From Myxococcota bacterium (GTDB lineage: Bacteria; Myxococcota_A; UBA9160; UBA4427): a DNA stretch of 64,000 nucleotides. The DNA is taken from contig JASMLK010000115.1 of the NCBI GenBank assembly GCA_030748735.1, forward strand, positions 354 to 64,353. Direction: 5' to 3'. Position numbers and translations under genes: made by a program. The notes beneath the pieces were generated by a model, which ran no database searches, had not been told where the DNA came from, and saw only the letters and a program-made list of their open reading frames with translations. Positions 47,795 to 63,798 of the stretch are shown here, piece after piece (position 1 is the first letter of the stretch; each line of letters opens with the position of its first letter).

Positions 47795-49453
47795 TCAGGG
47801 CGCGACTCGGGCACTCGCCACGGCGCTCTCTTCCCAGCCGTAACGCAGGGCCTTCGCTTCCACGCGTTGGCCTGACCGTACGGGGACGGGTCCGCGGTAG
47901 ACCCGCCAGTCCCCTCCCGCGAGCCGGAAGCCGATCGAGGCACCGGCCGTCGCGCAACTCATCGTCGCCCGTCCTGCTTCTATCTGGATGGTGGGCGCAG
48001 CCGTCTCTGGAACCTCACCACCGGGAACCATGCGCTCCTTCATTGCGGCCTCGGGCTCTTCACTCCAGTCCCCGATCTGGGCCAACCGTTTGTCGAGCGC
48101 AGCGCGCAGCCGGGCCAGGGTTTCGGCATGGGCCGGATCGTCCGCGTGATCGACGAGCTCGTGAGGGTCATGCTCGAGATCGAAGAGACGCTCTTCACCC
48201 GGAGGCTCGAACCACAAGCGCTGTTCGGGAGTGAGTTCGCCCGCGGCGTGCAGTGCGTGCAACTCACGCATCATGTCGGTCTTGTCGCGGAATTCGAGAC
48301 GGTGGCCACCGGGTTGGTCGGGTACGTCGCTGCGGATCAACTTGTAGCGACCATCGCGGACGGCCCGCTGGCGGTCGAAGACCTCGTCGATTCGGTCTCG
48401 GCTCGCGAAGACGTACTCGCGCCCGGGGCCCTTGATGAAGTCCCGACCATGCATGTGCGTCGGCGCCTCCACCCCACCCCAACGCAGAAAGGTCGGCGCA
48501 AAGTCGACGAAGCTCACGAGCCGAAGGTCTTCACTGCCGGGCTCCATCTCGGGCGGACGCAGGCGCTCGGGCCAGCGAACGATCATCGGCACCCGGATCC
48601 CCGAGTCGTAGAGTTCCCGCTTCGCGCGGGGAAGCGCATCGCCGTGGTCGGTGGTGAAGACGACGACCGTTTCTTCGAGCAGACCTTCGTCACGCAGGCG
48701 CTCCATCCACTCGCCGACCCGCGCATCCATCTGGTGGATGTTGTCGTAGTGGCGCGCGATCGCGGCGCGCACGGTCGGCGTGTCGGGGAAGTACGGCGGG
48801 ACGGCGACATCCGCCGGGTTCGTCACCGACTCGGAATGGCCGATCGCCAGGCGCATCAACTGGACGCCCAGGGTGGTCACGCTGCGAGGCCACGCCTCGA
48901 ACAGCCGCGGATAGAGGCCACTCTCGTGCGTCTCCATGAGGTTGACGAACGCAAAGAACGGCTGGCCTTCGGCGCGTCCGGACCAGTCTGCACTGCCAGG
49001 ACTGTCGAAGATCGGGAACGGCGCCGACGTGAAGACGCCGCTGAACTGATAGTCGTGCTTCACTTCGTTCGTCGTGTAGTAACCCGAAGCGCGAAGCAGC
49101 TCCGGGTAGGCCTTGGCGTGGGCGGGCGGCACGGCGACGTAGCCGCCGGCGGGATCAGAAGACGAGCGCATGTGCTGGGTGCCCGTCGAGATCTGATGCA
49201 TGCCCAGGATGTGCGCAGCGCGGCTCGGTGCGCACACGCCCGCGGTGGTGAATGTGTTCGGGAAGCGCACGCCATCCCGTGCGAGCGCATCGATGTGGGG
49301 CGTACTCGCTACCGGATCACCGAAAGCACCGATCCGCGCGCTCAAGTCCTCGGCCATGAGGAGCAGGATGTTGGGGCGCGGCTCGGCGGAGGCGATCGTT
49401 CCCCAGCAGACACACAGCAATAAAGCCAGAACGAAACTTCGAGTCGACGCCAT
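47795..49453 (-). CDS. Sulfatase (type I, formylglycine-dependent)
   Basis: Signal peptide, NILLLMAEDL, and TTAGVCAPSRAAHILG (C-x-P-x-R). Confidence 0.85.
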   Translation of the reverse strand: MASTRSFVLALLLCVCWGTIASAEPRPNILLLMAEDLSARIGAFGDPVASTPHIDALARDGVRFPNTFTTAGVCAPSRAAHILGMHQISTGTQHMRSSSDPAGGYVAVPPAHAKAYPELLRASGYYTTNEVKHDYQFSGVFTSAPFPIFDSPGSADWSGRAEGQPFFAFVNLMETHESGLYPRLFEAWPRSVTTLGVQLMRLAIGHSESVTNPADVAVPPYFPDTPTVRAAIARHYDNIHQMDARVGEWMERLRDEGLLEETVVVFTTDHGDALPRAKRELYDSGIRVPMIVRWPERLRPPEMEPGSEDLRLVSFVDFAPTFLRWGGVEAPTHMHGRDFIKGPGREYVFASRDRIDEVFDRQRAVRDGRYKLIRSDVPDQPGGHRLEFRDKTDMMRELHALHAAGELTPEQRLWFEPPGEERLFDLEHDPHELVDHADDPAHAETLARLRAALDKRLAQIGDWSEEPEAAMKERMVPGGEVPETAAPTIQIEAGRATMSCATAGASIGFRLAGGDWRVYRGPVPVRSGQRVEAKALRYGWEESAVASARVAP

Positions 49454-50257
49454 CGGCGCGGATACTACTCGAGCTGAACCGCCGGGGTTCGTGCAGAGAA
49501 CCCCGCGCCAGGCGGATCATCCAGCGCCCGCTCTTCGTCCGACGGGAGGCTCACATCGTCGTCCATCGCTCGGGTTCCTCGATCTCTGCCGCACGGGGGG
49601 GGGCTGCCTGCAAGTGCAATCATGTGATCTTATGCAATCAACTCCGTCGATCGATGCCCTCGGCAGGACGGCCAATGCTTCTGCTTCGCAGAGCAGTTCG
49701 GGCCGACATACCGGAGCCGCGACCAACACGTTGGAGAAGCCCTCGAAGCCAGCTTTTCGGAACTTCACGCGAAGGCGTGCCGCGTCGGCTGGGCGCTTCA
49801 AGTAGGTGATGGCAGAGCGCTTCCATGGACGCAATCACCACGAAATCCGAGATCCCCACCTCACAAGGCAACGAGGCGGGAGTCGCGGGCGGCCTGAAAT
49901 CCGGCGGCAACATGCAGAAGATCCAATTCAAAGAGAGAAACACGAACCACGACCTCTGGACGCGACCGTTGCGCTCCGGGCTACGCGGGAGGCACAAGTA
50001 CGATCGCCTGGTCGAAATCTGCCAGGACCGCGGCGTCCATACGCCTGAAGATCCGTTCGTGTTGTGGGAAGGCGATGGTGGAATGATGATGACGGAGATT
50101 CCGGCAGCAGTGGTCCTGCACGATGCGATTGGGGGGACACCCTGACCATGGGCGAAGTGGTCTGGACCCTCGACCAGCACGGGGAGACCGTCGAGTTGCC
50201 CGGCAGTACGCCTGGCTGCGATCGCTCTTGATCGTCGCCTGTTGCTAAGATCTCCGT

Positions 50258-50707
50258 GTGTTCGAACGCATGGCCCCGCAGACACTCAAGGTCTGGTTGA
50301 TCGTCGCAGCAGCGATCTACTTCTTCTTCCCATTCGACCTCGTTCCCGACTTCTTCGGTCTTCCGGGACGCATCGACGACCTTGGCATCATCGCGTTGCT
50401 GGCATGGTTCTACCGAAACCATCTCGCTCGACTCGCGGCGTCAGCGGCCGGGCAGACCGGTGGTTCTACCAACAACCGCGCCGGACGAGACGCCGGCGAA
50501 CCAGCGCGGACCGCAAAGACGTTCGACGCGCATCAGGTGCTGGGCGTCCCGCGAACGGCATCGAGCGACACGATCAAGGCCGCATATCGCGCGCGCATGC
50601 AGGAGTATCATCCCGACAAAGTGGCCCATCTCGGAGAAGAGCTGCAGCAGCTGGCACACGAGAAGTCGCAGGAAATCCAGCGCGCCTATCGGCAGCTCAC
50701 GGGTTGA
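50258..50707 (+). CDS. DUF1232 (YkvA-like) membrane domain fused to a J domain
   Basis: YFFFPFDLVPDFFGLPGRIDDLG (DUF1232 pattern). C-terminal J domain (AHQVLGVPRTASSDTIKAAYRARMQEYHPDK). The start is GTG 50258 or ATG 50270. Confidence 0.75.
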   Translation: MFERMAPQTLKVWLIVAAAIYFFFPFDLVPDFFGLPGRIDDLGIIALLAWFYRNHLARLAASAAGQTGGSTNNRAGRDAGEPARTAKTFDAHQVLGVPRTASSDTIKAAYRARMQEYHPDKVAHLGEELQQLAHEKSQEIQRAYRQLTG

Positions 50708-50876
50708 ATCGAGCTTTCCGGCGCAATCCCAGATCTTGTTGAACCAGGATTGGCCTGGGCATCGCCCGACGGTAGAGCGGGAACATCCCCAGGGAGTCCG
50801 ACGGCTCAGGTCCCCGCCAAGCGTTCGCGGTTACGTGCAACTGGATTCGAATCCAGTCGCCTCCTTCGGCTGAATG

Positions 50877-50908
50877 TGGTGGAGCCGGCGCGAATCGAAC
50901 CCGGGTCC
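50877..50908. repeat. Degenerate copy of the ssrA 3' end (distal att-like site)
   Basis: tggtggagccggcgcgaatcgaacccgggtcc versus the ssrA 3' end tggtggaggcggcgggaatcgaacccgcgtcc (29/32 identical). The T-arm is no longer self-complementary, so this is a remnant and not a gene. Confidence 0.5.
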
Positions 50909-50933
50909 AGGAAACGTGCAGGTCGAGGTCGAG

Positions 50934-51833
50934 CTACTCGAACTTCATGCCGTCCTTACGACCTTCGCGCAGGAATGCCGCCTCAGAACCCTCCGCCTCG
51001 ATGATGGCTTGCACCTTCTCGTCGGTGTGACGTTCATCGGTAACCAGATCAACGTACATTTCCATTCCGAACGCGCCGTCCAGATCATTGACGATGCGCT
51101 GCTTCCACTGGCGACGGAAGACCTGGGTCGTCACACGACGGGTGACTCGAGGCTGTGACATGAGGCGGTCAGCGATCTCGTAGGCGCGTTCGACCAGCTT
51201 TTCCTTCGGTACCAGTTCGCTGACCAGCCCCCAGTCCAGAGCCGTCTTGGCATCGATCGCCTTGCCCATCCACATGGCGTACGAAGCTCGACGGATCCCC
51301 ATCAGTTCGATGAAGCAGCTGTGGATGCCGTCGCCGGGGACCAGGCCGAAGCCGTAGTGGTCGTCCATGATGATCGCGTCGTCGGAGGCGATCACGATGT
51401 CCATCATCAGGCCGATCTCAGTGTGAAAACCGAAGCCCGGGAACGCACAGATGGTCGGGAATTCGATGTCGTGAATCAGAGAGATCAGCATCTGACGACC
51501 GTCGTAGAACATGTTCTCGTAGGTCGCGCGCTTCGGGTCACCACCCAAAGCCGGCTCTTCGATCTGGGCCCAGCTATCGGTGTCGAAACCGCGCATCCAG
51601 TTGTCGCCCTTGGCCGTGAAGATGAGCACCTCGTTCTTCGGATCAGAGCCGATGGTGCGGAATAGCTGCCAGATGGCACGGTGCAGCTCAGCGTTCCACT
51701 GAACTTCGCCACCCAGCGTGTGCATGCAGACGTAGAGAACGCCGTCATCACGGCGCTCCATCTCGAAGTGCTCCTTGAAGAGCTCCTTGTACTCCTTGAA
51801 TTCCGGTGTGGGGATCCAGTTGGTCAGTGACAT
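50934..51833 (-). CDS. Crotonase/enoyl-CoA hydratase superfamily protein
   Basis: 299 aa. ...VLIFTAKGDNWMRGFD..., and the AFPGFGFHTEIGLMMDIVIASDDA oxyanion-hole region. By eye, third codon positions are more AT-rich than in the neighbours. Confidence 0.7.
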   Translation of the reverse strand: MSLTNWIPTPEFKEYKELFKEHFEMERRDDGVLYVCMHTLGGEVQWNAELHRAIWQLFRTIGSDPKNEVLIFTAKGDNWMRGFDTDSWAQIEEPALGGDPKRATYENMFYDGRQMLISLIHDIEFPTICAFPGFGFHTEIGLMMDIVIASDDAIIMDDHYGFGLVPGDGIHSCFIELMGIRRASYAMWMGKAIDAKTALDWGLVSELVPKEKLVERAYEIADRLMSQPRVTRRVTTQVFRRQWKQRIVNDLDGAFGMEMYVDLVTDERHTDEKVQAIIEAEGSEAAFLREGRKDGMKFE

Positions 51834-51862
51834 CTCACAGTCTCCTTGGTTCGTCGTTGGGG

Positions 51863-52519
51863 TCAGGGTGACGACCGGTCCGGTAGCGGCAGATCGATCG
51901 CGGAAAGTTCCTCATTGGCGATGGCCTCGGCCTCGTCGTCGGGGATGCCCAGCAGTCGCAATGCGTGTGCGGTGAAAGTGACTTCGGCCTCGGCGGGCAG
52001 CTCACCCTCGAGGCGCCGGCGCATCAACGCCTCGGCTCCGCCGCCGATCATCGTGTAGATGATCTCGAGATCGTCGAAGTGGAAACGTCCGGAGTCGAGT
52101 CCACGCTGGATGTCCCGGCGTCCGTAGACACCCACCGCCAGGCCACCCATCGAGATCAGGTTCCCCACGCGCAAGATGAACCAGCCGAGCGCCGGATCTT
52201 CGACGCAGGCGCGGAGCATGTGCCGCAGGCTCGTAGCAACCACTCGGGCGGCGTCGTCGCGCACGGGTTCGGTGAGCATGTCGAGTGCGCGACCGAGTTC
52301 GGCGAAGGTCTCCTCGATGACCGCCCGCAGGCACGCATCCTTCGAATCGAAGTTGTTGTAGAAGCTGCCCTTCGCGACGTCAGCCGCGTCGGTGATGTCC
52401 TGGATGGTGGTGGCGCCCACCCCCTGCGACGCGAACACCTCGCGGGCGGCGGCCAGCAAGGCGGCCCGGGTTCGAAGGCGTCTTCGCGCGGCTCGGTTGT
52501 CGGTCTTGGGTTCGGCCAT
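51863..52519 (-). CDS. TetR/AcrR family transcriptional regulator
   Basis: HTH LLAAAREVFASQGVGATTIQDITDAADVAKGSFYNNFDSKD. Confidence 0.85.
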   Translation of the reverse strand: MAEPKTDNRAARRRLRTRAALLAAAREVFASQGVGATTIQDITDAADVAKGSFYNNFDSKDACLRAVIEETFAELGRALDMLTEPVRDDAARVVATSLRHMLRACVEDPALGWFILRVGNLISMGGLAVGVYGRRDIQRGLDSGRFHFDDLEIIYTMIGGGAEALMRRRLEGELPAEAEVTFTAHALRLLGIPDDEAEAIANEELSAIDLPLPDRSSP

Positions 52520-52963
52520 GGCCCAGTTGATACCCGGAAATGACTATTTGGTCAACTATGAATTATCGGTCACCTAGATTTTCGGCGGATTTCGCGAAGA
52601 CCCGGCTCGAAACTCCTTCGATAGGGTCGAAGCGGCCGCGGCGATTGGGAAATCGCCTGGCCGGAGCCGTCACCCCAGCAGATGCTGCGGGTTCCCCCGT
52701 CACGATCGACCAGCCGGGAACTCCCGGCCGGCGCCTGTTACCAATGCACGCCCGGGATGCGGTGTGCGAAGACCTTGGCCTCGGGGACACCTCTCCGGTT
52801 CCTGCCTCATCGGCGTGGGCCTTGGCCGCAAGCGAATCGGGGAAGATGCGGACGGCCATGTTGACTGTCGCATGGTCGGTGGGGAGAGTTCCGCGGGCGG
52901 TACGATCTCCCCTACCCAGGTGGTCGCCATGTGCTGGGCTCGAGACCACGGAAGGAGACTGTG

Positions 52964-54112
52964 ATGCCGCAAGTCAGCGAGACGATTCCCGAAGCGTTGA
53001 AGCCGCGCGTCGATGCCGCACTCGCATGGTTCAACGCGTCCGCTGATGCGGCCGAAGACGAGTTCAAGGTGACGGGCATCCTCGACGCAGACGAGGCGCT
53101 GAGTGGGTCAGACGAGCTACGGCTCATCCTGTGCGGCGGGGATCGCTGCGAGCAACGCTCGTTTCGGGTCGGTGGCACCGTAGATGCGTGGGAGATCGAC
53201 TTCGCCGATTCTGCCCTGGCACCGCAGGACGCGAAGCCGCAGGCCGAGCTCGACCCGCCGCCGGGGCCACGCCTTCGTTGGCTCGACGAAAAACTCTCGC
53301 AACACGCCTTCGTCGTCCTGCTCTTCTACCGGGGCTTCTGGTGACCTCCGTGTCGCTCCGAGTTGCGGAGCTACATGCGCGAGGGCGTCGTCCGGAAGAT
53401 CCGCGCCGCAGGTGGCGAGGTCTATGCCGTCACCAGCGAGCCGCAGTATTTGGCCAATCAGGCCCACGAACACTGGGAGCTCGACTTCGAGAACGTCGGT
53501 GACCCCCATCAGGAGATCTCGAGAACCTGCAGTGAGCGCGGTTGGCTGACCCTCTATGCGAACAAGGGCGACCTCGAGTTTCTGCAACGCGGGGCGGACT
53601 GGGAGGTCGAGCATCCGAAGGGCTACTTCCAGCCGGGCGTGCTGGCCCTGACGAACACAGGGCGCGTTCTCTACCGCTGGCGCTCGGTGCCGTCGGCCGA
53701 GAACCTGAGCGGCACACTCGCGCGACCCACGGCTCGGCACGCATGGGGTGCCATCGAGAGATCACTCGCAGCCCGTGACGCCGCCGGAGATGCCGCGCAC
53801 GACGACAACCCCGAGATCGACCAGGCACCGCCGCCGCGAATCGTCTTCGTCGCTGCATTGATCGCGAACGGCTGGTTCGTAGGCGTGAAGTCGTTCGCCT
53901 ACTCGCCCGGGGTGGGATCGGTCCCCTCGCGCTTCGCCAAAGCCGCATCGCGTTGGCTGCTCTTCCTGGCGTTCTGGGCCGCCGCACTGGTCTGCTTGCC
54001 GACCGTGCTCGTCGGGTTGGCCTTTGCCGGCTGGGTTGTATGGATCGTGCGGGACATCCGGCGTGTGCTCGGTGGCCTGGATGTGCAGGAGGAACTCGTC
54101 GCGAATCGGTGA
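52964..54112 (+). CDS. Three-part redoxin protein (unknown N-domain, thioredoxin-fold redoxin domain, C-terminal TM helices), predicted selenoprotein with Sec encoded by TGA 53342-53344
   Basis: ORFs 52931..53344 and 53363..54112 share one frame and are separated only by TGA. Read-through gives HAFVVLLFYRGFW-U-PPCRSELRSYMREGVVRKIRAAGGEVYAVTSE. A hairpin sits at the same offset as in the first case. ATG 52964 follows GGAAGGAGA. Confidence 0.65.
53351..53375 (+). promoter_or_regulatory. Candidate bacterial SECIS hairpin
   Basis: UGU-C-GCUCCG-AGUUG-CGGAGC-U-ACA (6-bp core plus 3 bp across a C/U mismatch). The core starts 10 nt after the UGA. The loop lies at +17..+21. Confidence 0.5.
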
Positions 54113-54202
54113 GGCTTGCGGTCGCGCGGCGAGGGCGCAGACAGCACGCGCTGCTCACATGATCGAGGTGCGGCTGAGTGAACCCAAGGCGCAGATTCGG
54201 CT

Positions 54203-54232
54203 TGGCGGAGGCGGCGGGAATCGAACCCGGGT
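54203..54232. repeat. Degenerate copy of the ssrA 3' end (att-like direct repeat)
   Basis: tggcggaggcggcgggaatcgaacccgggt versus ssrA 59893-59922 tggtggaggcggcgggaatcgaacccgcgt (28/30 identical). No matching 5' acceptor strand lies upstream, so this is not an intact tRNA or tmRNA. Confidence 0.6.
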
Positions 54233-54308
54233 ACGGTTCAATGAAATCAGGGACTTACACCGACAATCGGTGCCTCTCGGGCAGCCTGGCCTGATCACCT
54301 GGATTTGA

Positions 54309-54334
54309 GGTTATATAACCCAACTATTGGGTTA
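54309..54334. promoter_or_regulatory. Overlapping palindromes upstream of the wHTH gene (candidate operator)
   Basis: GGTTATATAACC (perfect 12-nt palindrome) overlaps AACCCAACTATTGGGTT (7-3-7 inverted repeat), about 30 nt upstream of the likely start. Confidence 0.35.
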
Positions 54335-54365
54335 TAGTGCCGACCCCCCGATGAGGTCGGTCAGC

Positions 54366-54698
54366 ATGCTCGAAGGCATCTTCGGAAACGCCAGCGCCGA
54401 GAAAGTCCTGCTCTACCTCGAGCAGTACGAAGAAGGCTACGCGACGGCGATCGCCCGCACCTTCGACGACCTCTCGCTGAACATGGCGCAGCGTCAGCTC
54501 GAGCGATTCGAGCGGGCTGGCGCGCTGGTGAGCTCGCTAAAGGGCCGCACCCGCCTCTACACCTGGAATCCCCGCTATCCGTTTCGGCGCGAGCTGCGCG
54601 CCCTCCTCCGCAAGGCGCTCGACCAGCTGCCCGCGTCCGAGCGGAAGCGCTACTTCACCGAGCGCAGGCGGCCGCGCCGAGCGAGCAAGCCGCTTTGA
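54366..54698 (+). CDS. Winged-helix (ArsR/MarR-like) DNA-binding protein
   Basis: MLEGIFGNASAEKVLLYLEQYEEGYATAIARTFDDLSLNMAQRQLERFERAGALVSSLKGRTRLYTWN. GAGG lies 9 nt before ATG 54366. The ORF-track start at 54327 is a TTG inside the palindrome. Confidence 0.6.
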   Translation: MLEGIFGNASAEKVLLYLEQYEEGYATAIARTFDDLSLNMAQRQLERFERAGALVSSLKGRTRLYTWNPRYPFRRELRALLRKALDQLPASERKRYFTERRRPRRASKPL

Positions 54699-55252
54699 GC
54701 GGGAAGCCTCGGGTCAGCAAGCGCACCTCGCTGGAAGACCTGGCAGCCCTCGTCTGCACCACGCTCGAAGCGCACGGCATCTCGGTCGTCCTCTCCGGTG
54801 GCGCAGTCGTTTCGATCTACTCCGACGCCGAGTACGTCTCGTACGACCTCGACTTCATCCCGACTGGACTCGCCCGGAAGGTCGACACCGCGATGGAGTC
54901 GCTTGGCTTCGAGAAGACCCAGCGACATTGGACACACCCGAAGAGCCGCTACTGGGTCGAGTTCCCGCCCGGCCCCGTGGCGATCGGAGATGAGACGATT
55001 CGCGAATTCGCGGAGCGCGAGACGCGGATGGGAACGCTGCGGCTGCTGGCTCCGACCGAGTGCGTCATGGACCGGCTTGCCTGGTACTTCCACGATGCGG
55101 ACACGCAGTGCCTCCAACAGGCGATCCAGGTCGCGACGCAGCATCCCGTCGATCTGAAGCGGATCGCGAAGTGGGCGCGTGGTGAGCGGCCTCATGGTGA
55201 GGAGCGCTACCGGGAGTTCGAGCGGCGGCTAGCCCAGGACTCCAGCGCATAG
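54695..55252 (+). CDS. Nucleotidyltransferase-fold protein (AbiEii-like GG...DxD motif), possible toxin partner of the wHTH protein
   Basis: The TTG start overlaps the upstream stop (TTGA). HGISVVLSGGAVVSIYSDAEYVSYDLDFIP resembles the G-G/S...D-x-D minimal NTase motif. Family assignment is tentative. Confidence 0.45.
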   Translation: MSGKPRVSKRTSLEDLAALVCTTLEAHGISVVLSGGAVVSIYSDAEYVSYDLDFIPTGLARKVDTAMESLGFEKTQRHWTHPKSRYWVEFPPGPVAIGDETIREFAERETRMGTLRLLAPTECVMDRLAWYFHDADTQCLQQAIQVATQHPVDLKRIAKWARGERPHGEERYREFERRLAQDSSA

Positions 55253-55480
55253 CGTCCCGCCGTGTACATGCCTCCGAGTCACATGAAGTTGCGCGTATGC
55301 AGCGCCGAGAGCGCCTCGGCCTCCGCACGGATCGGAATTTCTGGCCCCGTTTTCTTCCGGAGGACCGATCACTTCACGCTATGTCAAGCAGGGACCTGAG
55401 GGATTCACGCCCCCGCGGCGGGCTTCGTTCAGAGGCCTGAGCGGCCAGGTCCGGCTCCATGACGTCGGGTTGCCTTTAGA

Positions 55481-55495
55481 TTGACATGATGTCAA
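55481..55495. promoter_or_regulatory. Palindrome TTGACAT-G-ATGTCAA (candidate TetR operator overlapping a -35-like TTGACA)
   Basis: 7-1-7 inverted repeat ending 10 nt upstream of the TetR ATG (55506). Confidence 0.4.
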
Positions 55496-55505
55496 TGTAA
55501 GTGCA

Positions 55506-56108
55506 ATGGGACGCAAGAGCCTCGCGCCGGTTCGCACCGAAGAGATCCTGGAAGCCCTGGACCGGTGCGTCCTCCGCGACGGGCTCGCGGCCACGACCCT
55601 GGCCTCCGTCGCCGCCGAGGCGGCGGTGCCGCGCACCCTGATCTCCCACTACTTCGGTGGCCGCGAGGGGCTGCTGCTAGCGTTCTTCGGCCGGATCCTG
55701 GCGCGGCGCCTGCCCGAGTTCGAGGCCTGGGTCGCGCGCAAGCGTGGGCGGAGCCGGCTGCGGGCCGGCCTCTGCTATCTCTTCGAGGGCCCCTTCCTCG
55801 ACGACCACCACGGTCTGGCGACCAGCGGCGAGATGCTCGGGCTGGCCGCTCGGAACCCGGACTGCGCCCGGGTGCTGCGCGAGATGTACGACGGCTTCGC
55901 CGCCGCCGTCGAGCGCGAGCTCGAGACCCACGCGCCCCAGGCGTCGCCCGCGCGTCGCAAGGAAGCCGCCTACGCGATCGTGTGTCTGGCCGAGCAGAAC
56001 CAGGCCCAGCGCTGGCTGGGCGCCTCGCCGACCCAGGGCCGCCGCGCCCTGCGCGCCGCCGAGACCCTCGTCGCGAGCCTCGGCACCCGGGATCCGGAGG
56101 AGCCGTGA
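55506..56108 (+). CDS. TetR/AcrR family transcriptional regulator
   Basis: HTH ILEALDRCVLRDGLAATTLASVAAEAAVPRTLISHYFGGREGL. The stop overlaps the next start (GTGA). Confidence 0.8.
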   Translation: MGRKSLAPVRTEEILEALDRCVLRDGLAATTLASVAAEAAVPRTLISHYFGGREGLLLAFFGRILARRLPEFEAWVARKRGRSRLRAGLCYLFEGPFLDDHHGLATSGEMLGLAARNPDCARVLREMYDGFAAAVERELETHAPQASPARRKEAAYAIVCLAEQNQAQRWLGASPTQGRRALRAAETLVASLGTRDPEEP

Positions 56109-56935
56109 GCAGCGCGCAACCCGACACCCGAGCCCCCTGCACGGAGCTGCTCCTCGTCGCCCTGGCGGCGGGCCTCGCCATGGCCATCCTGTTCCTCGTC
56201 GGCAGCGTTGGCTGGGAAGGTCGTGAGGACACCTGCCTCGTCGGCGGCCAGTGCTTCTGCGAGCGCGATCACGGAGGACTCGTCCGGCAACCCGCCAACA
56301 CCGCCTCGAACCTCGGCTTCGTGATCGCCGGTCTGCTCGTCGCCTGGAGCCTGGGGCGGGAGCGCATGCGCGGACGCCTCCCCCGACCGGGCAACCCGAT
56401 GACCGAGACCCGCTTCTACCCCGGCTTCTACGCCCTGGCGGTCGCGCTGCTCGGACCCGGGAGCATGGCGCTCCACGCCTCCCTCCTCTGGTGGGGCAGC
56501 GTGCTCGACCTCGTCTCCATGAACGTCTTCATCGGCTTCGTGTTCAGCTACGCCCTGGTCCGCTGGCGCGGCCTCGGCGTCGGCGCCTTCCTGGCCAGCT
56601 TCCTGCTCCTGAACGCCGTGCTCCTCGCCATCAAGCTGATCCACGGCCACGGCTCCGCCGCCTTCGGGGTGACGGCCGTCGTCTCCCTCGCCATCGAGCT
56701 TCGCATCCGGCGAGAGGGTCGGGTGACCGGCGACGGCCGCTACCTGGCCGCGGCCGCGATCACCTTCGTCGTGGCCTTCGTCGTCTGGCTCGGCAGCGAC
56801 AACGACGGCTGGCTGTGCGATCCGGACTCCTGGCTCCAGGGGCACGCGTTCTGGCACCTGGGCTGCGCCGGATCGACGGCCTTCCTCTACCTCTACATGC
56901 GTTCCCAGCACGACGCGGGAGGCGAGTCGGCATGA
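56105..56935 (+). CDS. Ceramidase-domain-like polytopic membrane protein
   Basis: GTG 56105 lies in the frame of ORF 55565..56935. CFCERDHGGLVRQPANTASNLGFVIAGLLV and the C-terminal GHAFWHLGCAG resemble the alkaline ceramidase family (E-P-x-N-T-x-S-N ... H-x-x-W-H). About 7 TM helices. Confidence 0.6.
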   Translation: MSSAQPDTRAPCTELLLVALAAGLAMAILFLVGSVGWEGREDTCLVGGQCFCERDHGGLVRQPANTASNLGFVIAGLLVAWSLGRERMRGRLPRPGNPMTETRFYPGFYALAVALLGPGSMALHASLLWWGSVLDLVSMNVFIGFVFSYALVRWRGLGVGAFLASFLLLNAVLLAIKLIHGHGSAAFGVTAVVSLAIELRIRREGRVTGDGRYLAAAAITFVVAFVVWLGSDNDGWLCDPDSWLQGHAFWHLGCAGSTAFLYLYMRSQHDAGGESA

Positions 56936-59517
56936 GCCACGGCGCATCGGGACCCCGTATCGGCCTCGCGTTCCGCTTCCACGCGAACTTCTACCACTCC
57001 TATCGCGGAGACACGCCGGACGAGCTCGGCTTCGGCATGGACATGCGCATCATCCGGCGGATCCTCGAGGTGCTCGACGCCTGGAACGACCGGGGCCTGC
57101 CGGTCCGCGCAACCTGGGACGTCGACAACCATTACTCCCTCGAGAAGATCATCCCCGAGCACTGCCCCGACATCCTCGAGGCCTGGCAGCGGCGCGTGGC
57201 CGACGGCCGGGACGAGTTCGAGCTCATGTCGTACAACAACGGCCTGGCCAACGCGGCCACCGCCGCGGAGTTCGACGCGAGCATCGAGCGGGCCCTGCGC
57301 AACCCCGAGGGCTCGGGGTTGGAGGACCTGTTCGCGTCCCACGCGCGGATCGTGCGGCCCCAGGAGATGATGTACACGCCGCGCCACCTGGATCTGTATC
57401 CCCGGCTCGGCATCGACACGATCAGCCTCTTCTACAGCGCGGTTCCCTTCAACGCCTTCAGCAACTTCGTTGCGCCCCTGCCCCTGGAGCAGCGCTACAA
57501 CCCGCTGATCCTGTGGCACCCCGACGCGGAGGGGACGATGTCCCTCCTCCCCGCCTACAACCACGGCGACATCGCCGACCAGCTCTCCTTGCGCCGCTGG
57601 CTCGAGCGCATGCGCCGCGCCCAGCTCGCCCTGTCCGAGCCACGGGACCTGCTGCTGCTCATCGACGCCGACGCCGACGACGAGTTCTGGTACGGCTACG
57701 GCGCCCCCGTCCTGCCCCGCCTGATCGCCATCGCCGGGGGCCTCGACGGCCTGCTCGCGAGCGTCGCGGACCTCGACTTCGTGGACTTCACGACCCCCGG
57801 CGCCTACCTCGCCGACCACCCGCCGGTGGACCGCATCCGGATCGACCACGATACCGCCGACGGCTCCTACGACGGGTTCGCGAGCTGGGCGGAGAAGTGG
57901 TCGAGTCATCAGCTCTGGACCGGGATCGAGCGGGCTCGCCTGCTCGAGATGCAGGCGCGACGGCTCCTGTCCGAGATGCCAACCGGACCCGATCGTGAGG
58001 CCCTCGAGCAGAAGCTCGCGCGGAGCTTCGAGTCGCGGCTGCTCTCGCTCTCCACCACGCACTTCGGGCTGACCTCGCCCGTCGTGAACAAGAGGCGGCT
58101 GCGCACGGCGACCGGGCTCGTCGCCCGCGCGGTGGTCGAGGCCGAGCAGGCGTTCCTCGGGGCCGCCGCCGGCATCACCGGCGCGGAGCGACCCGCTGGC
58201 GAATCGCGGATCCCGCTCCAACTCGTCGACTTCCCCCGCGGCGTCGACACGGATGCGGTTCGCTACGAGCCCCGCCCGTCGCGGGCGTGGGTCCGCATTC
58301 CCGTCGACACAGCGGTGGCGGAGGCGCGGGCGGTCGAGGTGGTGGACGCCGCGGGAATGCCCCACGCGGCCGTCCTGCGGCCCCGCGCCGAAGGGTCCGG
58401 AGAACTCTCCCTGGTCGCCGCCCTCGCGGCGTGCGAGCGGCGAGACCTGACGGTCTCCCTCGACGGATCGCCGGGCGCCACCGTGCCGCTGCCCGGTGAG
58501 CCGGTTCGCACCGATCCCACGAGCCTCGACAACGGGCTGCTGCGCCTGCGCTTCGACGCCGAAGGACGCTGGGTCGGGCTCGAAGGGCCGGGCGGCGAGC
58601 TCGGCGACGGCCGGTCTCCGTTGGTGGGATCGGCGGTCCGGTATCGGCGCCAGCTCTGCGAAGCCGGGCCGTGGAGCGTCGTGAAGAACGACGTCGTGGG
58701 TGGGGGACTCCTGGGCGCGGTCCGGGTCGAGACCGCGATTCCCCTGCCGAAGGGCGCGGGAGCGGTCCGGGTCCAGAGAGAGTTCACCCTGGTGTCGGGG
58801 CTCCCGCATCTGTACTGCGAGACCTGGGTCAGCTATCCCGAGACCGAGTCGAAGAAGTACGACCGCGCCCGGGCCCGCGCCCTCGAGCAGGCCTACGACG
58901 GCCACTGGCGCGAGGCCATGCCCTGCGAGTTGCGCCCCGCCCTGTTCGGTCGCCCCGACCGGCCCCTCCGCATCTGGAAGCACAATCACCTCGGCCACGT
59001 CGGCCACTACGACCTCGACCACGGGAACCACACCGGGCGCCACGAGGTCGACACCCTCAACAACCACGTCACCTGCGGCTGGGTCGCCGCGAGCGACCGC
59101 GAGCGGGGGCTCCTGGTCGCCCAGACCAGCTCCGCGACCGCGGGCATGGCCTTTTGCCCGATCCGTCTGCGCGAAACGGAATCCGGAACGCGCCTGTTCC
59201 TGAACCCCTTCGGCGCCTACCACGGCCGCCAGCTGCCCTACCCCACCCGCTACAGCGGCGTCGGCTTGCTGGCCGCCTGGCTCGGCGCGCCGACCCTCGA
59301 CCCCCAGGCCCCCTCCTTCAACGGGAATCAGCAGCACCTCTCGTTGATGCTCGCTCCCTATGCGGGTGACCGTCCGCCGCAGGCGCTGTGCGACGCGGCC
59401 ATGGCCTTCCACTACCCCTACGCCGTCGTCTCCGACGCCCCGAAGATCGCCACGCCGTCGACGCGCCGCTGGCACCACCCGGGGGTCGAGCACGACGAGC
59501 AGGAGACTGCCCGATGA
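56932..59517 (+). CDS. Large (861 aa) glycoside-hydrolase-like protein (GH38/GH57-type N-terminal barrel plus GH38-like C-terminal beta-domains)
   Basis: ATG 56932 overlaps the upstream stop (ATGA). N-terminus IGLAFRFHANFYHSYRGD... The C-terminal stretches NGLLRLRFDAEGRWVGLEG and GWVAASDRERGLLVAQ...RLFLNPFG resemble the layout of alpha-mannosidase C-terminal domains. Assignment is by pattern only. Confidence 0.55.
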   Translation: MSHGASGPRIGLAFRFHANFYHSYRGDTPDELGFGMDMRIIRRILEVLDAWNDRGLPVRATWDVDNHYSLEKIIPEHCPDILEAWQRRVADGRDEFELMSYNNGLANAATAAEFDASIERALRNPEGSGLEDLFASHARIVRPQEMMYTPRHLDLYPRLGIDTISLFYSAVPFNAFSNFVAPLPLEQRYNPLILWHPDAEGTMSLLPAYNHGDIADQLSLRRWLERMRRAQLALSEPRDLLLLIDADADDEFWYGYGAPVLPRLIAIAGGLDGLLASVADLDFVDFTTPGAYLADHPPVDRIRIDHDTADGSYDGFASWAEKWSSHQLWTGIERARLLEMQARRLLSEMPTGPDREALEQKLARSFESRLLSLSTTHFGLTSPVVNKRRLRTATGLVARAVVEAEQAFLGAAAGITGAERPAGESRIPLQLVDFPRGVDTDAVRYEPRPSRAWVRIPVDTAVAEARAVEVVDAAGMPHAAVLRPRAEGSGELSLVAALAACERRDLTVSLDGSPGATVPLPGEPVRTDPTSLDNGLLRLRFDAEGRWVGLEGPGGELGDGRSPLVGSAVRYRRQLCEAGPWSVVKNDVVGGGLLGAVRVETAIPLPKGAGAVRVQREFTLVSGLPHLYCETWVSYPETESKKYDRARARALEQAYDGHWREAMPCELRPALFGRPDRPLRIWKHNHLGHVGHYDLDHGNHTGRHEVDTLNNHVTCGWVAASDRERGLLVAQTSSATAGMAFCPIRLRETESGTRLFLNPFGAYHGRQLPYPTRYSGVGLLAAWLGAPTLDPQAPSFNGNQQHLSLMLAPYAGDRPPQALCDAAMAFHYPYAVVSDAPKIATPSTRRWHHPGVEHDEQETAR

Positions 59518-59684
59518 CGAAGACGCTGAAGGCCCTGGTGTTCCCCGAGCCCTGGCGCGTCGAGCTGACCACGACCGAGGTCCCGAAGCCCGGCCCCCAC
59601 CGAGCCCACCCCCACGGACGAGAAGCCATGTCCATCTCGTTCTACGACGCCAGCGTCGGCAGCTACGAGATCGCAACCACTTGA
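59514..59684 (+). pseudogene. Composite gene scar: N-terminal 28 codons of a Zn-dependent alcohol dehydrogenase (MDR) joined to a short N-terminal piece of another gene (DUF1993-like?)
   Basis: MTKTLKALVFPEPWRVELTTTEVPKPGP (MDR N-terminus), then HRAHPHGREA, then MSISFYDASVGSYEIATT-stop. It lies between the island operon and the ssrA 3' end. Confidence 0.45.
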
Positions 59685-59892
59685 ATAGACTGGCACGCCG
59701 GGGAGGGATTGGAACGCCCGTTCCCTTCGCTCATACGATCTACTCGCTCATCGCTCGCAGATCGAGTTCAGGTTCGAAGCCCGGTCCCACGCGCGGCGGC
59801 GCCTCTTCCGTCTCGTTCGCCCCACCGGAACTGCCTCAGAGGTGCCTCAAACGAAAAAGCAGCCACGCAAGTAACTGCTTTCGTTGAGAAAC

Positions 59893-60258
59893 TGGTGGAG
59901 GCGGCGGGAATCGAACCCGCGTCCGCATGGCGTCCAGAGAACGCGTCTACGTGTGTAGTCCTTGCTCGATTTCGGAAGCACCGGCCGCAAGGACGGAGCA
60001 AGTACTCCCTAGCTACACGTGGATCTCACTTCCGGTTACGGTCTAGCAGCGATCGGAAGCCAGTCTCCTGATGACTCTCGCGACCCGCTAGGAGACGTCA
60101 CGGACGAGAGCCCGCTTACCTAATTTCTGTTAGGCAGCGAGAGCGTAGTTTTCGTCGGCAGATAAAAAGCTACCAACTGTGATGCTTCTTTAACGACGAA
60201 CATCAAAGTCGACACGCAGCGCTCACCTTCGACCACCCGTCGAAGCCAAGTCGCCCCC
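59893..60258 (-). ncRNA. ssrA: tmRNA (transfer-messenger RNA)
   Basis: Reverse strand: 5' GGGGGCGACTTGGCTTCGACGGG ... 3' GGACGCGGGTTCGATTCCCGCCGCCTCCACCA. Acceptor stem has the G3.U pair. The tag reading frame GCC GAC GAA AAC TAC GCT CTC GCT GCC TAA gives ADENYALAA (60130..60159). Confidence 0.92.
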
Positions 60259-60296
60259 ATTCCCGAGAGGGTAGATGCGGGGCCGCGGATGACAAG

Positions 60297-60590
60297 CTAC
60301 GCGGGCGGGGTTTTCTCCGGGCGAAACACGTCCATCGAGCCGATCGTGTCGCGGTTTTGCTTGATGCGGCGGCATATCAGCCAGCGGCCGTCGACCTTCT
60401 GCCACGCGTCGCGGTAGAGGCCCAGGGTGCGAATGTCGCGCCCGGTCTCGAGCCCCAGCCCGACATCCGCCTCGATGTCGGGGGTCGTCAGCGCTTCGAT
60501 GGCCGACCAGTCGCGCTCGTCCATCGCGCGGGCGAAGCGCACGAGTTGCCGGTAGATCTCACGTTCGGCGAGAAGTTGATCGAGATCCAT
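60297..60590 (-). CDS. Short SnoaL_4/NTF2-like protein, apparently internally deleted
   Basis: MDLDQLLAEREIYRQLVRFARAMDERDWSAIEALTTPDIEAD... jumps directly to ...GLYRDAWQKVDGRWLICRR. It is about 50 residues shorter than family members as I recall them. Confidence 0.45.
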   Translation of the reverse strand: MDLDQLLAEREIYRQLVRFARAMDERDWSAIEALTTPDIEADVGLGLETGRDIRTLGLYRDAWQKVDGRWLICRRIKQNRDTIGSMDVFRPEKTPPA

Positions 60591-60801
60591 TTCTCGGGGT
60601 ACCTCCGAAGGACCGGCTCAGAAACGGTCCGGCCGCGATGGCCTCGATCGCGCCTTCCACCTGCGTGCGGTCGGACAGGTCCGCAACGAGGTCGGCATCG
60701 CGAATGTCGACCGTGATCACATCGTGACCGTCCGCTTCGAGTCGTTCCTTGACCGCCAGACCGATTCCACTCGCCGCACCCGTCACGGCACAGACACCCA
60801 T
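60559..60801 (-). pseudogene. N-terminal fragment of an SDR (3-alpha-hydroxysteroid dehydrogenase-like)
   Basis: ATG 60801 follows AGGAGG. MGVCAVTGAASGIGLAVKERLEADGHDVITVDIRDADLVADLSDRTQVEGAIEAIAAG, after which similarity is lost (about 58 of an expected 250 or so aa). The tail overlaps the next ORF. Confidence 0.5.
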
Positions 60802-60946
60802 CAGATTCCTCCTCTTCCCGTCTTCGTTCGAACCTGCAAGACGTTCGCGTTGTGAACGCACACGATAGGAAATCGCGAGCAGTCCGGGATCTACGCGGTG
60901 CCCTGATCGCCGTTGAAGGACAAGTCGAGACTTCACCGGTTTTACT

Positions 60947-61127
60947 CTCGTGGGGACCGTCGATCAGCTTCAACTCGCGACTCTCGAAGCGGCGGTCGAA
61001 GCCGTCGAGGATGTGCTTGAACCAGCGGAAGAGCGCTTCGCGTCCCTTGCACCGGTCGCGAGGCCAGCGCAGGCAGATCGATTTCGTACACCACGTCCTC
61101 GGTGAAGAACGGCTCGAGGCTCGACAT
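60947..61127 (-). pseudogene. Frameshifted, truncated SnoaL-like gene
   Basis: MSSLEPFFTEDVVYEIDLPALASRP (frame 1) continues in another frame as CKGREALFRWFKHILDGFDRRFESRELKLIDG. The shift lies near 61050-61055. Confidence 0.4.
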
Positions 61128-61142
61128 GTCGACGCGCGGCGC

Positions 61143-62078
61143 TCAGGAACGCAGCGCCCGTAACGCCTCCGCGCAGTCGACCTGATCCGCCCCCGGCTTG
61201 AAGCCCGCGTCTTCGAGCTTCGAAGTGTCGACGGCGTGGCCGAAGCGAAGAATGGGAAGATTGTGATCCGTGATATGCGGAACACCCACCCTCGACGCCA
61301 GGCCCTCGAAGATGTTGGCCGAAAGCGGAAGGCTCGGAATCGCCGTCACCTCGCAGTGGTCGAGAATTTTGCTTTCGCGCATCACACCGCGCGAAGCCAC
61401 GTTGTAGCAACCCGCGAGCTCGCGCTCGGCCGCAAACAGGGTCGCTTCGATGGCGTCGTCGACGTGCAGGAATTGCAGTGTCGGGTCGTGCCCGATGACG
61501 GTCGGAACGACGGTCTGGCCGAAGTGCCGGGCGAGCGCACCGTTCGCCCCCTCCCCTACGACTTCCTGCAAACGCAGGATGGCGACGTTGAGGTAGGGAG
61601 CATGTTCGGCGACATCGACCGCATAGTCTTCGGCTTCGAGTAGAGCCCCCAGACGCAGGTCGTCAGCAGGCACCCTCGGATGAGTCTCGCGATCGAGCAG
61701 GGGCCTCCCGCCGTCGATCGGGTACACGCCGGTTGACGAAAGCGCGACCCAGGAGCGGACGGGGCTTCCCTCGCGCGCTACTGCAGCGCCCAGGCGCATC
61801 GTGCCGATGACATCCGCGCCGGCCCCCGGGCGGACGTCCCCCATGCGGTCGGGGGCCAGGCTGCATTGGATCACGCTGTCGATCTCGTGCTCGCACATCG
61901 CGGCAAACTGCGCGCGAGGGTCGGCTTCATGGGCGAGCCACTTGATCCGCGGGTGCCAATCCGGACTGTGCTCGGGCTCGATCGCGACGACGCGCTCGAC
62001 GTCGTCGAGGTCCGCGGTCGCCTCGGCGAGCATGCGCCCCAGCGGCGTCGCCGCCCCTTCGATCCACACGTTCTTCAT
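61143..62078 (-). CDS. NAD-dependent epimerase/dehydratase family protein (atypical SDR)
   Basis: 311 aa with a Rossmann-like N-terminus (VWIEGAATPLGRMLAE) and an extended-SDR layout. ATGA-type overlap with the upstream acyltransferase gene. Confidence 0.7.
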   Translation of the reverse strand: MKNVWIEGAATPLGRMLAEATADLDDVERVVAIEPEHSPDWHPRIKWLAHEADPRAQFAAMCEHEIDSVIQCSLAPDRMGDVRPGAGADVIGTMRLGAAVAREGSPVRSWVALSSTGVYPIDGGRPLLDRETHPRVPADDLRLGALLEAEDYAVDVAEHAPYLNVAILRLQEVVGEGANGALARHFGQTVVPTVIGHDPTLQFLHVDDAIEATLFAAERELAGCYNVASRGVMRESKILDHCEVTAIPSLPLSANIFEGLASRVGVPHITDHNLPILRFGHAVDTSKLEDAGFKPGADQVDCAEALRALRS

Positions 62079-62911
62079 GACCGGCTGCGACCTCGGTCTC
62101 CCGATTCCTCGGGCAGCTTTTCGTTCGAGGAATCGAAGTAGATGCCGTCGCGTTCGTCCAGCATGCGGTCGAGCTCAGACTGCATCAACGAGCGAACTTC
62201 CTGGGCGCGGTCCATCAATATGCTAAGGGGAATGTGCTTCGGTACATGGGAATCGTCCCATTCGATCGGGGGCAGCACGCGCACGCGGATCTTCGCGGGA
62301 AACTGGGCCACGGCCCCGAGGATCGGACCGAACATCAGCGCGTTCACCGTAACCGGGAAATCGCCGTTCGGTGAAGGCAGGACCCCCAGCACGGGCGTCG
62401 TGTCTTCGGTGCCGACGAGCACGATCGGGACGATGGGAACCCCCGCGCGCATCGCGGTCTCGACGAACCCACCGCGCCCGAACCGCTGCAGCTTGTATCG
62501 CTCGGACGGCGGCTTGACGGGCCCCTTCGAACCTTCGGGGAACACCATCACGAGCTGCTCGTCCTCGCGCAGCAGACGCTCGGCGTTGTCGGGATGACCG
62601 ACCACCACGCCGACCCGCTCGACCAGGCGGCCGACGAAGGGCAGATCGAAGAAGCCCTTGAAACCGAGTCCGTAGACCGGGCGTCCGCGTTCTCGTTCGA
62701 CGCCCATCTGCACGATCTTGCCGTCCACCGGCAGCATGCCCGCGTGGTTGCCCACGAGCAGCGCTCCACCGCGCTTGGGGATGTGCTCGACGCCTTCCCA
62801 GGTGACGCGGAAGTACTTGTCGTACATGAAGTCGAAGATCGAGTCGCGCAGATCCTCTCCGGGCGTCACGCGCCCCCAGCGATCGACCTGTTGCGTCGTC
62901 GAATTGCTCAT
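62075..62911 (-). CDS. Lysophospholipid (1-acyl-sn-glycerol-3-phosphate) acyltransferase family protein
   Basis: LLVGNHAGMLPVDG (the H-x4-D acyltransferase motif) and VFPEGSKG (motif III). Confidence 0.8.
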   Translation of the reverse strand: MSNSTTQQVDRWGRVTPGEDLRDSIFDFMYDKYFRVTWEGVEHIPKRGGALLVGNHAGMLPVDGKIVQMGVERERGRPVYGLGFKGFFDLPFVGRLVERVGVVVGHPDNAERLLREDEQLVMVFPEGSKGPVKPPSERYKLQRFGRGGFVETAMRAGVPIVPIVLVGTEDTTPVLGVLPSPNGDFPVTVNALMFGPILGAVAQFPAKIRVRVLPPIEWDDSHVPKHIPLSILMDRAQEVRSLMQSELDRMLDERDGIYFDSSNEKLPEESGDRGRSRS

Positions 62912-63363: not shown

Positions 63364-63798
63364 GTTGCCCTCCGGCTCCCCTTCTGATGCCACGACCATC
63401 ACTCTCGTTCGGCCGATTCGTCGGCGACTTGCGTGATCGTCTGGGCATGCGCCTCGGCCGCGGGTTCGTGATGCGGCGGTACCTCTGGGCGAATGCATGA
63501 ACGGGGCCAAACACACCAAAGGCGAGGGGCGAGGCGAGACGGCACCGCACGCAGCCTGACCGCCTCCGCCACGATTCGGGCCCGAGCGGGCGTTCTGGTG
63601 TTGGCCCTAATCACACCAGGGAAGACTGGAGCGGGGCACCCCTCCCCAATTGACATCTCCAGGTGGCGCACATCGTTGCAGGGGCGAAGTGGGCAGTCTT
63701 TGCTACATCCCTGCTCTCGCCAGGGAATTGCACTTTTCAGCAGCCCGCGGACGTCTCAACACCGCGAAGAGCGGCAGAACACGGCAGGAGAAATCGCG

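Follow-up and report, generated by a model that had tools for sequence, protein, structure and literature searches.

The DNA considered here is a stretch of 64,000 nucleotides from an uncultured Myxococcota bacterium (positions 354 to 64,353 of contig JASMLK010000115.1, assembly GCA_030748735.1), which we call the window. It contains ssrA, the gene for transfer-messenger RNA (tmRNA), and the 3' end of this gene recurs twice in the DNA on its 3' side. Site-specific insertion in tandem at ssrA is, in our view, very likely the origin of this region. The adjoining 9.4 kb would then be a tandem array of two non-autonomous integrative units, inserted successively within the last ~27-30 nt of the gene; with each insertion a new ssrA 3' end would have formed and the earlier one would have been displaced. 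The unit next to ssrA (the proximal unit) appears to come from a family of cassettes that spreads horizontally in this Myxococcota order; a ~200-nt arm at its end carries a terminator, which would serve the regenerated ssrA. Later, this unit would have gained a GC-rich operon of 4.4 kb by illegitimate recombination at the last codons of a nucleotidyltransferase gene. The second (distal) unit, whose core is mutated and whose arm is truncated, is probably older and in decay. On balance, it is probable that a trans-acting integrase inserted both as non-autonomous cassettes.

The window corresponds to contig C115 of a draft genome of 160 contigs (5.08 Mb, 64.8% GC, 94.8% complete). The comparison covers relatives from the order (193 genomes), the family (67 others) and the genus (5 others); in the following, labels beginning with G denote genomes and those beginning with L denote loci or contigs. 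Coding frames of the window were chosen by third-position GC and Pfam matches, and the coordinates of all features are collected in Table 1.

The tmRNA gene is intact, as the first-pass annotation of this DNA had stated, and ARAGORN and Rfam agree on it. Its 3' end, TGGTGGAGGCGGCGGGAATCGAACCCGCGT, recurs downstream; on the plus strand the 3' end of the gene reads TGGTGGAGGCGGCGGGAATCGAACCCGCGTCC. Direct reading of the sequence also bears out the two displaced copies described in that annotation: copy 2 reads TGGCGGAGGCGGCGGGAATCGAACCCGGGT and copy 3 reads TGGTGGAGCCGGCGCGAATCGAACCCGGGTCC, both in the orientation of ssrA and on its 3' side. When the terminal 32-mer was searched in the whole draft with up to five mismatches, exactly three sites were found, all on one strand and on the 3' side of ssrA, within 9.4 kb; the sequences flanking the displaced copies are unique in the genome. 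Since there are only three sites in the 5.08-Mb draft, both a chance origin of the copies and an origin as dispersed repeats are excluded. Occurrence of the repeats at many unrelated loci, which had been named beforehand as a finding that would speak against integration, was not observed.

The block of identity between ssrA and its displaced copies stops after GAACCCG, inside the 5' strand of the T-stem, and it does so regularly across relatives. To judge from these alignments, a stop inside the T-stem is the pattern that a fixed crossover site would leave, as expected for integration targeted to a tRNA gene (tDNA). Besides the T-loop part, GAATCGAACC, the acceptor-stem part of the ssrA end is also matched in the displaced copies. 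The locus combines an intact tmRNA gene with displaced 3' fragments in direct orientation on its 3' side, which is the combination by which Williams and the Islander database recognize islands.

Such arrays are common in the order. A 23-mer from the ssrA end, searched with up to two mismatches, has at least one copy in 160 of the 193 genomes, at least two in 97 and at least three in 50, with a maximum of nine; a reversed-pattern control gave no occurrence in the same genomes. Many of the 30 nearest genomes have several copies in direct orientation downstream of ssrA, and among complete genomes G011 has four copies over 78 kb and G029 seven over 95 kb, all on the ssrA 3' side. In G028, a tyrosine-integrase gene (~445 aa, weak match to PF00589) runs towards ssrA and stops ~70 nt short of its 3' end, and a second integrase gene is placed likewise with respect to the next displaced copy. 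Genes that adjoin ssrA and its copy in this way show that the order has ssrA-specific integrases. On this gene arrangement, the canonical unit consists of a copy, cargo, an integrase gene and then the next copy or ssrA itself.

The proximal segment (54233-59892) is composed of a conserved cassette of 1.1-1.3 kb and the 4.4-kb insert. In its canonical form the cassette has the order ssrA-end core, ~95-nt arm, winged helix-turn-helix (wHTH) gene, nucleotidyltransferase gene, ~200-nt arm with a terminator, and core, and it is about 1.1-1.4 kb long in minimal forms. Homology among genomes spans the region from the core copy to the stop codon of the nucleotidyltransferase gene. The ~110 nt of the distal arm just inside copy 2 (54233-54345) are 73-82% identical to sequence in eight other genomes from three families of the order, and in all of these except G106, where no copy is seen, the match directly follows an ssrA copy. 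The same arm also matches the distal end of a 2.9-kb unit in G011, which carries both arm types and no integrase and has a different cargo, a short-chain dehydrogenase gene and a TetR gene; the same arms can evidently flank different cargo. Upstream of the wHTH gene, overlapping palindromes (GGTTATATAACC / AACCCAACTATTGGGTT, 54309-54333) resemble operators.

The two genes of the cassette overlap by 4 nt. For the wHTH gene we take the ATG at 54366, which is conserved in homologues; the listed open reading frame (ORF) starts earlier, at a TTG at 54327. Its product is 90-97% identical at the amino acid level in seven other genomes and weakly matches HTH_20 and the PADLOC candidate PDC-M05A. The nucleotidyltransferase is 86-92% identical in seven other genomes.

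The ~200-nt non-coding arm adjoining ssrA, termed flank A, contains tRNA-like 3'-end debris (59691-59719), a T-arm-like sequence CAGGTTCGAAGCC (59769-59784), the motif GGTGCCTC (59841-59848), which also occurs in the distal arm, and a terminator hairpin AAAAAGCAGCCAC-GCAA-GTAACTGCTTT (59854-59881). In G011 (a complete relative, OZ252299.1) it is 78-87% conserved next to ssrA and at three displaced copies, and it is also found beside ssrA in other metagenome-assembled genomes of Myxococcota. In the minimal cassettes of G017, L040 and L044, flank A directly follows the nucleotidyltransferase gene: the spacer aligns with 59691-59892 and shares with it the tRNA-like debris, CAGGTTCGAAGCC, GTGCCTCAAACGAAAAAGCAG and the terminator. 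We also considered flank A as the ancestral chromosomal flank of ssrA, a reading favoured by its position, which is next to ssrA in several genera and next to the outermost copy in G011. That flank A directly follows the nucleotidyltransferase gene in minimal cassettes and that genomes of the same genus have other flanks speaks against it, and flank A is treated here as probably borne by the element.

Two smaller observations concern flank A. The tRNA-like 3' end TGGCACGCCGGGGAGGGATTGGAACGCCC and the T-arm-like sequence (together 59691-59784) are conserved in the arms of other genomes and may be fossils of a tRNA gene or of a further attachment (att) site; no tRNA is called there by ARAGORN. 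In addition, a stretch of 35-37 nt, CTCATACGATCTACTCGCTCATCGCTCGCAGATCG (59730-59764), is a dispersed short repeat, with 92-97% matches at four other places in G011, which form pairs 216 nt apart at two loci separated by 22 kb, and weaker copies in G002 and G005.

Where loci reach far enough, the cassette lies beside an ssrA copy in seven other genomes from three families and in several metagenome contigs; no ssrA copy is seen at the cassette loci of G106 and L050. Minimal cassettes that lie between two copies, or between a copy and ssrA, occur in G164, G017, L037, L040, L042, L044 and L051. For example, the whole unit of G164 is 1,086 bp long and the next ssrA copy begins 58 nt past the nucleotidyltransferase stop codon. 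The corresponding distance is ~50-310 nt in G017, L037, L040, L042 and L044, and in L051 the intact tmRNA gene itself lies 183 nt past the stop. The distribution is patchy: of the 193 genomes, 37 have the nucleotidyltransferase gene, and they span 26 of 74 genera; the five other members of the genus all lack it. Between genomes, the coding DNA of the cassette is 83-92% identical, while the ssrA genes of the same genomes reach only 71-79% identity to that of the window, and pairs within a family are no closer in the cassette than pairs between families. The neighbours on both sides of the cassette differ in every genome, and the cassette itself is found next to ssrA (the window, G106, L051) or at an outer copy 21-28 kb away (G144, G166, G029). 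As far as genome comparison goes, this is evidence for an accessory, horizontally moving unit. With the cassette absent from the rest of the genus, copies in the same orientation, an identity stop in the T-stem, and arrays and integrases in relatives, the successive site-specific integrations into ssrA that the first-pass annotation had proposed are supported.

Homologues of the wHTH-nucleotidyltransferase pair, both close and distant, also occur beside tRNA genes or their 3' fragments in the metagenome loci L045, L050, L101 and L102. The target is tRNA-Met in L101 and L102, and in L050 a different tRNA-like end follows an integrase gene. The pair therefore appears to ride elements with other tDNA targets as well. 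A phage origin of the cassette was considered and rejected, since neither the flank A pattern nor the nucleotidyltransferase has a match in the IMG/VR viral contigs.

To consider what the gene pair might do, the nucleotidyltransferase was modelled with AlphaFold on the basis of 36 homologues (predicted local distance difference test score, pLDDT, 91.9). Foldseek matches to the model include ANT(2'')-Ia, LnuA, TM1012 and the toxins MenT1 and MenT3, with TM-scores of 0.45-0.6, and AbiEi is also listed. The motif SGGAVVSIY...SYDLDF is invariant across the 36 homologues. The protein has no match in Pfam, NCBIfam or PADLOC, and so no sequence membership in the AbiEii or MenT families; it matches only phrog_13263, a family of unknown function. 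The architecture is that of AbiE and MenAT: a gene with a Pol-beta-type nucleotidyltransferase fold and a G[GS]...D.D motif lies downstream of, and overlaps, a small gene for a DNA-binding partner. MenAT and AbiE pairs differ from the present pair in that the best fold matches here are the antibiotic nucleotidyltransferases ANT(2'')-Ia and LnuA (TM 0.47-0.6). With a match at the level of the fold only, a toxin-antitoxin or defence pair would be the likeliest identity.

The insert interrupts the cassette between the nucleotidyltransferase gene and flank A. Homology to other cassettes breaks at the last ~6 nucleotidyltransferase codons and resumes at 59691; the C-terminus (55230-55252) reads RLAQDSSA* in the window, against RLRETAGR* in homologues. 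Because these last codons differ from those of all homologues, the left breakpoint of the insert is placed inside the 3' end of the gene. The insert has a GC content of 70.7%, compared with 64.8% for the genome, which puts it in the top (100th) percentile of genome windows (~+4 standard deviations), and its tetranucleotide distance is ~7.5 standard deviations above the genome-window mean. The gene for an 861-aa protein in the insert has no homologue in the 67 other genomes of the family, and the best matches of its product, 55-59% identical, are from one genus of another family. The first-pass annotation had described the junction next to ssrA as a scar of gene fragments. The short ORF that adjoins flank A is indeed present as described; its reading as the N-terminus of an alcohol dehydrogenase was dropped, as it came from motif recognition only and neither Pfam nor tblastn confirmed it.

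The distal segment lies between copies 3 and 2. On the inner side of copy 3, only ~16-20 nt (GGTCCAGGAAACGT) of a second arm family precede the enoyl-CoA hydratase gene. The window has a truncated form of this arm; longer forms are present in G144 (L028 at 12379), L036 (at 14869) and G003 (L011 at 10496). On the outer side of copy 3, a hairpin AACTGGATTCGAATCCAGT (50839-50857) recurs beside a degenerate copy in G003 contig C25. Homologues of the genes of this segment are found in G003 and G011 at ~70-75% DNA identity in other contexts; the redoxin homologue of G003 sits in a block syntenic with contig C43 of the genome under study. The segment was also considered as an obvious import, and this was rejected in view of its host-like composition and the ~70% homologues in other contexts in G003. 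It is best read as an older, eroded insertion, and it is the weakest part of the island claim.

The AhpC/TSA-like redoxin gene of the distal segment contains an in-frame TGA that replaces the first cysteine of a W-C-P-P-C motif (FYRGFW-U-PPC). The redoxin orthologue of G011 (71% amino acid identity) keeps this TGA together with its context, and the Pfam AhpC-TSA match spans the TGA when it is read as selenocysteine (Sec), at 36 bits. The genes selA and selD and a tRNA-Sec are present in the genome. A pseudogene was rejected on the grounds that the TGA is kept at the CxxC position in G011 and that the Sec machinery is present; the redoxin is a probable selenoprotein, judging by codon conservation. 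The selD gene of this genome (contig C113:1104-2030) itself has one in-frame TGA, as where SelD itself is a selenoprotein. Near ssrA, a second linkage of a redoxin gene and the cassette is seen in G166, where contig C18 (L030) carries a 47%-identical Sec-redoxin homologue at 14362-15483, 1.5 kb downstream of the cassette.

Table 1. Features of the window at and around the ssrA array (positions are those of the window)
Feature	Position	Strand	Remarks
Sulfatase gene	47795-49453	minus	outside copy 3
PAAR-like fragment, 106-aa ORF	49825-50145		weak Tox-PAAR-like match, E 2e-5, below Pfam cut-off
DUF1232 + DnaJ-domain gene	50258-50707		
Displaced ssrA 3'-end copy 3	50877-50908	same as ssrA	29/32 identical, 3 mismatches
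Distal segment ('island 1')	50909-54202		between copies 3 and 2
Enoyl-CoA hydratase family gene	50934-51833	minus	Pfam
TetR gene	51863-52519	minus	Pfam
AhpC/TSA-like redoxin gene	52964-54112	plus	Pfam; in-frame TGA 53342-53344
Displaced ssrA 3'-end copy 2	54203-54232	same as ssrA	28/30 identical; border of proximal and distal segments
Distal arm (P') of cassette	54233-54365		motif GGTGCCTC at 54269-54276
wHTH gene, first of cassette	54366-54698	plus	110 aa; phrog_18520 at 77 bits
Small nucleotidyltransferase-fold gene, second of cassette	54695-55252	plus	185 aa; phrog_13263 at 120 bits
Foreign insert inside cassette	55253-59690	plus	composition and homology break
TetR gene	55506-56108	plus	Pfam; operator-like palindrome 55482-55494
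Ceramidase-like membrane protein gene	56138-56935	plus	Pfam
Gene for 861-aa protein	56932-59517	plus	no family match
Short fragment ORF	59514-59684	plus	57 codons
Proximal arm (flank A)	59691-59892		~200 nt, non-coding
att core	59893-59924		ssrA 3'-terminal ~27-32 nt
ssrA, intact tmRNA gene	59893-60258	minus	sole ARAGORN tmRNA call, tag ADENYALAA; Rfam RF00023 full length, 156.9 bits

The first-pass annotation had found no integrase, excisionase or transposase in either segment. This holds for the whole window: Pfam scans of all sizeable ORFs found none, and no remnant was detected by tblastn in any frame of the window with four integrases from the ssrA arrays of G028 and G011, three of which adjoin ssrA or a copy. 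Insertion would most likely have been catalysed in trans by an ssrA-specific tyrosine integrase, carried on a helper element that has since been lost, and the array would behave as cis-mobilizable elements do, by accretion and mobilisation. The alternative posed earlier, that the elements are either fixed and decaying or mobilised in trans, fits the two units unequally. The truncated outer arm of the distal unit agrees with decay, and the proximal unit, an intact-armed conserved cassette with an insert, is not simply decayed.

Several observations weigh against insertion of this kind and against spread of the cassette. First, the proposed genome search for an ssrA-specific integrase acting in trans gave no candidate: in the 94.8%-complete draft the same tblastn searches found only XerC/D-like genes. 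Two other genes with weak PF00589 matches, on C127 (beside tRNA-Arg) and C151, are partial and unrelated and were rejected as helpers, and there is no serine recombinase (PF00239) in the genome; a helper could lie on an element that was not assembled. Second, at about 30 cassette loci the cassette is never found in one repeat-bounded unit with an integrase, and its arms are tied to no particular integrase. The P arms that adjoin known integrases (G028, L027) differ from flank A, and it is the core that is shared with the integrase-bearing units of G028. In five genomes that carry the cassette, the contig with ssrA lacks any PF00589 gene. In L027 and L050, C-terminal remnants of integrases do occur just outside the bounding att copy of the cassette, which is an ssrA copy in the former and a tRNA-like 3' end in the latter; these remnants belong to the neighbouring unit. 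Third, third-codon-position identity of the cassette genes is 66-83%, compared with 91-97% at positions 1 and 2, and identity of the arm is 60-77%. Low identity at third positions and high identity at the first and second indicate that the spread was not very recent and that the proteins are under strong purifying selection; an old, often-lost ssrA neighbour under such selection is still a conceivable alternative to horizontal spread. Fourth, the distal segment has a GC content of 63.6% and a tetranucleotide usage that is ordinary for the genome. Composition indistinguishable from the backbone had been named as evidence against islands, and it is found in part of the region: the 4.4-kb insert is atypical, and the distal segment and the cassette cannot be told from the genome. 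Exchange among Myxococcota of equal GC would explain the host-like composition. Finally, no clean empty site was found among the loci of G002, G003 and G005, because these relatives are too divergent and contigs break at ssrA.

Among the five other genomes of the genus, ssrA was found in G002, G003 and G005, and its 3' flank in these three is unrelated to that of the window; this and the absence of the 861-aa gene from the 67 genomes may reflect an occupied site. These loci share ssrA alone with the window, except that G003 also shares the 5' flank, and on the contigs of G002 and G005 the sequence runs on for 1.7-2.6 kb past ssrA and then stops.

Some further observations were made at these loci. 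The 5' flank of ssrA (60259-64000, compared with L001-L003) is not conserved in the genus, and a rearrangement breakpoint lies at ssrA. G003 shares the epimerase and acyltransferase genes of the 5' flank and has ~6 kb extra next to ssrA, and in G002 and G005 the genes before ssrA are syntenic with contig C102 of the genome under study. On contig C107 of G005 (L002), ssrA (7295-7661) is accompanied by a perfect 38-nt copy of the ssrA end (8369-8406), with a low-GC unit of ~0.7 kb between them; ARAGORN mis-calls this copy as a 90-nt tRNA-Arg.

The alternative that survives best is that both segments are dead remains of autonomous islands or prophages, which lost their integrase modules by deletion, e.g., by recombination between neighbouring repeats of the ssrA copy plus flank A, and which are now fixed and were never mobile as small units. 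G011 has direct repeats of core plus flank A, 200-300 nt long, which could drive such deletions, and the truncated arm and three core mismatches of copy 3, the gene fragments adjoining flank A, the integrase remnants beside copies in relatives (L027) and the lack of a helper in the genome are all in keeping with this explanation. However, the same minimal two-armed unit is found in many genomes and contigs with different neighbours, which would need repeated independent deletions with the same end points. The consistent separation of cassette and integrase at about 30 loci and the use of the same arms around unrelated cargo in G011 also argue against it, and we regard it as less likely than insertion in trans, but not as far-fetched.

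A wider extension of insertion in trans would make ssrA an integron-like capture site in this order. Small recombinase-less cassettes with a common pair of arms (~95 nt, and ~200 nt with a terminator) and varied cargo (the wHTH-nucleotidyltransferase pair and TetR-linked enzymes) would be exchanged between genera by a trans-acting ssrA integrase. The wHTH-nucleotidyltransferase pair would then be a selfish cassette, for addiction or defence, that this system has spread. We hold this extension to be speculative and rather doubtful.

Another explanation is that homologous recombination following uptake of DNA, instead of site-specific integration in this lineage, brought in or rearranged the array, with ssrA and the shared arms as anchors. 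On one side, ssrA and flank A would offer hundreds of conserved bases, and the difference of the ssrA 5' flank within the genus (G002 and G005 being syntenic with C102) suggests that the whole neighbourhood recombines. However, ssrA genes are only 71-80% identical between families and would be a poor substrate, the sharp end of identity in the T-stem at every displaced copy looks like the product of a defined crossover site, and integrases sit at these sites in relatives; this explanation is very unlikely. Lastly, that the two short matches arose by chance or from generic tRNA-like T-arm similarity and delimit nothing, as the generic T-loop sequence of GAATCGAACC and the ordinary composition of the distal segment might suggest, is practically refuted by the number and placement of the three sites, by the match in the acceptor-stem part and by the fact that the arm sequences of the copies are common to ssrA-copy junctions of other genomes.

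Insertion of two units in tandem at ssrA, which we prefer, has consequences for annotation and for island detection. In this window, the region of 50.9-59.9 kb should be treated as accessory DNA, the 4.4-kb GC-rich operon as a recent import, and the TGA at 53342 not as a break in a gene. Island finders that require an integrase miss tandem integrase-less units at tmRNA genes, and the gene flow that such units carry goes uncounted; here the cargo comprises a putative toxin-antitoxin or defence pair, a foreign, glycoside-hydrolase-like operon and a probable selenoprotein gene. In addition, a recurrent cassette with defined arms offers a concrete substrate for asking whether ssrA-specific tyrosine integrases mobilise cassettes in trans.

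Among known systems, integrons are analogous only in the stacking of promoter-poor small units: the units described here have no adjacent integrase, and their repeats are copies of the ssrA 3' end with arms rather than attC sites. Cis-mobilizable elements (CIMEs) are non-autonomous elements that have kept their att sites, lack genes for integration and transfer, and lie in tandem with related elements at one site; their mobilisation by a helper has been shown experimentally. The present units resemble them in being bounded by att sites at both ends and free of recombinase genes, and the arms of the proximal unit are conserved across genomes. They differ in that mobilisation by a helper is a matter of inference here and no helper is resident.

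Islander records tandem arrays, lists the tmRNA gene as the target with the highest enrichment, and requires an integrase for each island (PMC4383910, where Williams 2003, 'Traffic at the tmRNA gene', is cited). The islands of Williams and Islander and the units described here are alike in the regenerated target gene and the displaced 3' fragment in direct orientation; since neither unit here has an integrase, pipelines of this type would not call them.

In Dehalococcoides, multiple tandem islands lie downstream of ssrA, each bounded by a 20-bp repeat with extra conservation around it (McMurdie et al. 2011, PMC3146451). Only 16 of these ssrA islands carry an integration module, and the others were suggested to be either cis-mobilizable elements moved by accretion or fixed remnants, with reference to CIMEs and to the accretion and mobilisation of elements of the ICESt1/ICESt3 type (PMC3146451). 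Both systems have tandem units behind a single-copy tmRNA gene, direct repeats of the ssrA end and many units without an integration module. In Dehalococcoides, however, the gene for the large serine recombinase DsiB overlaps the repeat, whereas PF00239, and with it a module of the DsiB type, is absent from the genome studied here, and tyrosine integrases (PF00589) stand beside ssrA in its relatives. The present array also differs in its phylum (Myxococcota), its cargo, the much smaller size of its units (1.1-5.7 kb) and its defined wHTH-nucleotidyltransferase cassette. A landing pad for mobile DNA of this kind is already known and the locus fits that kind, with the Dehalococcoides ssrA islands and cis-mobilizable elements as its nearest published parallel.

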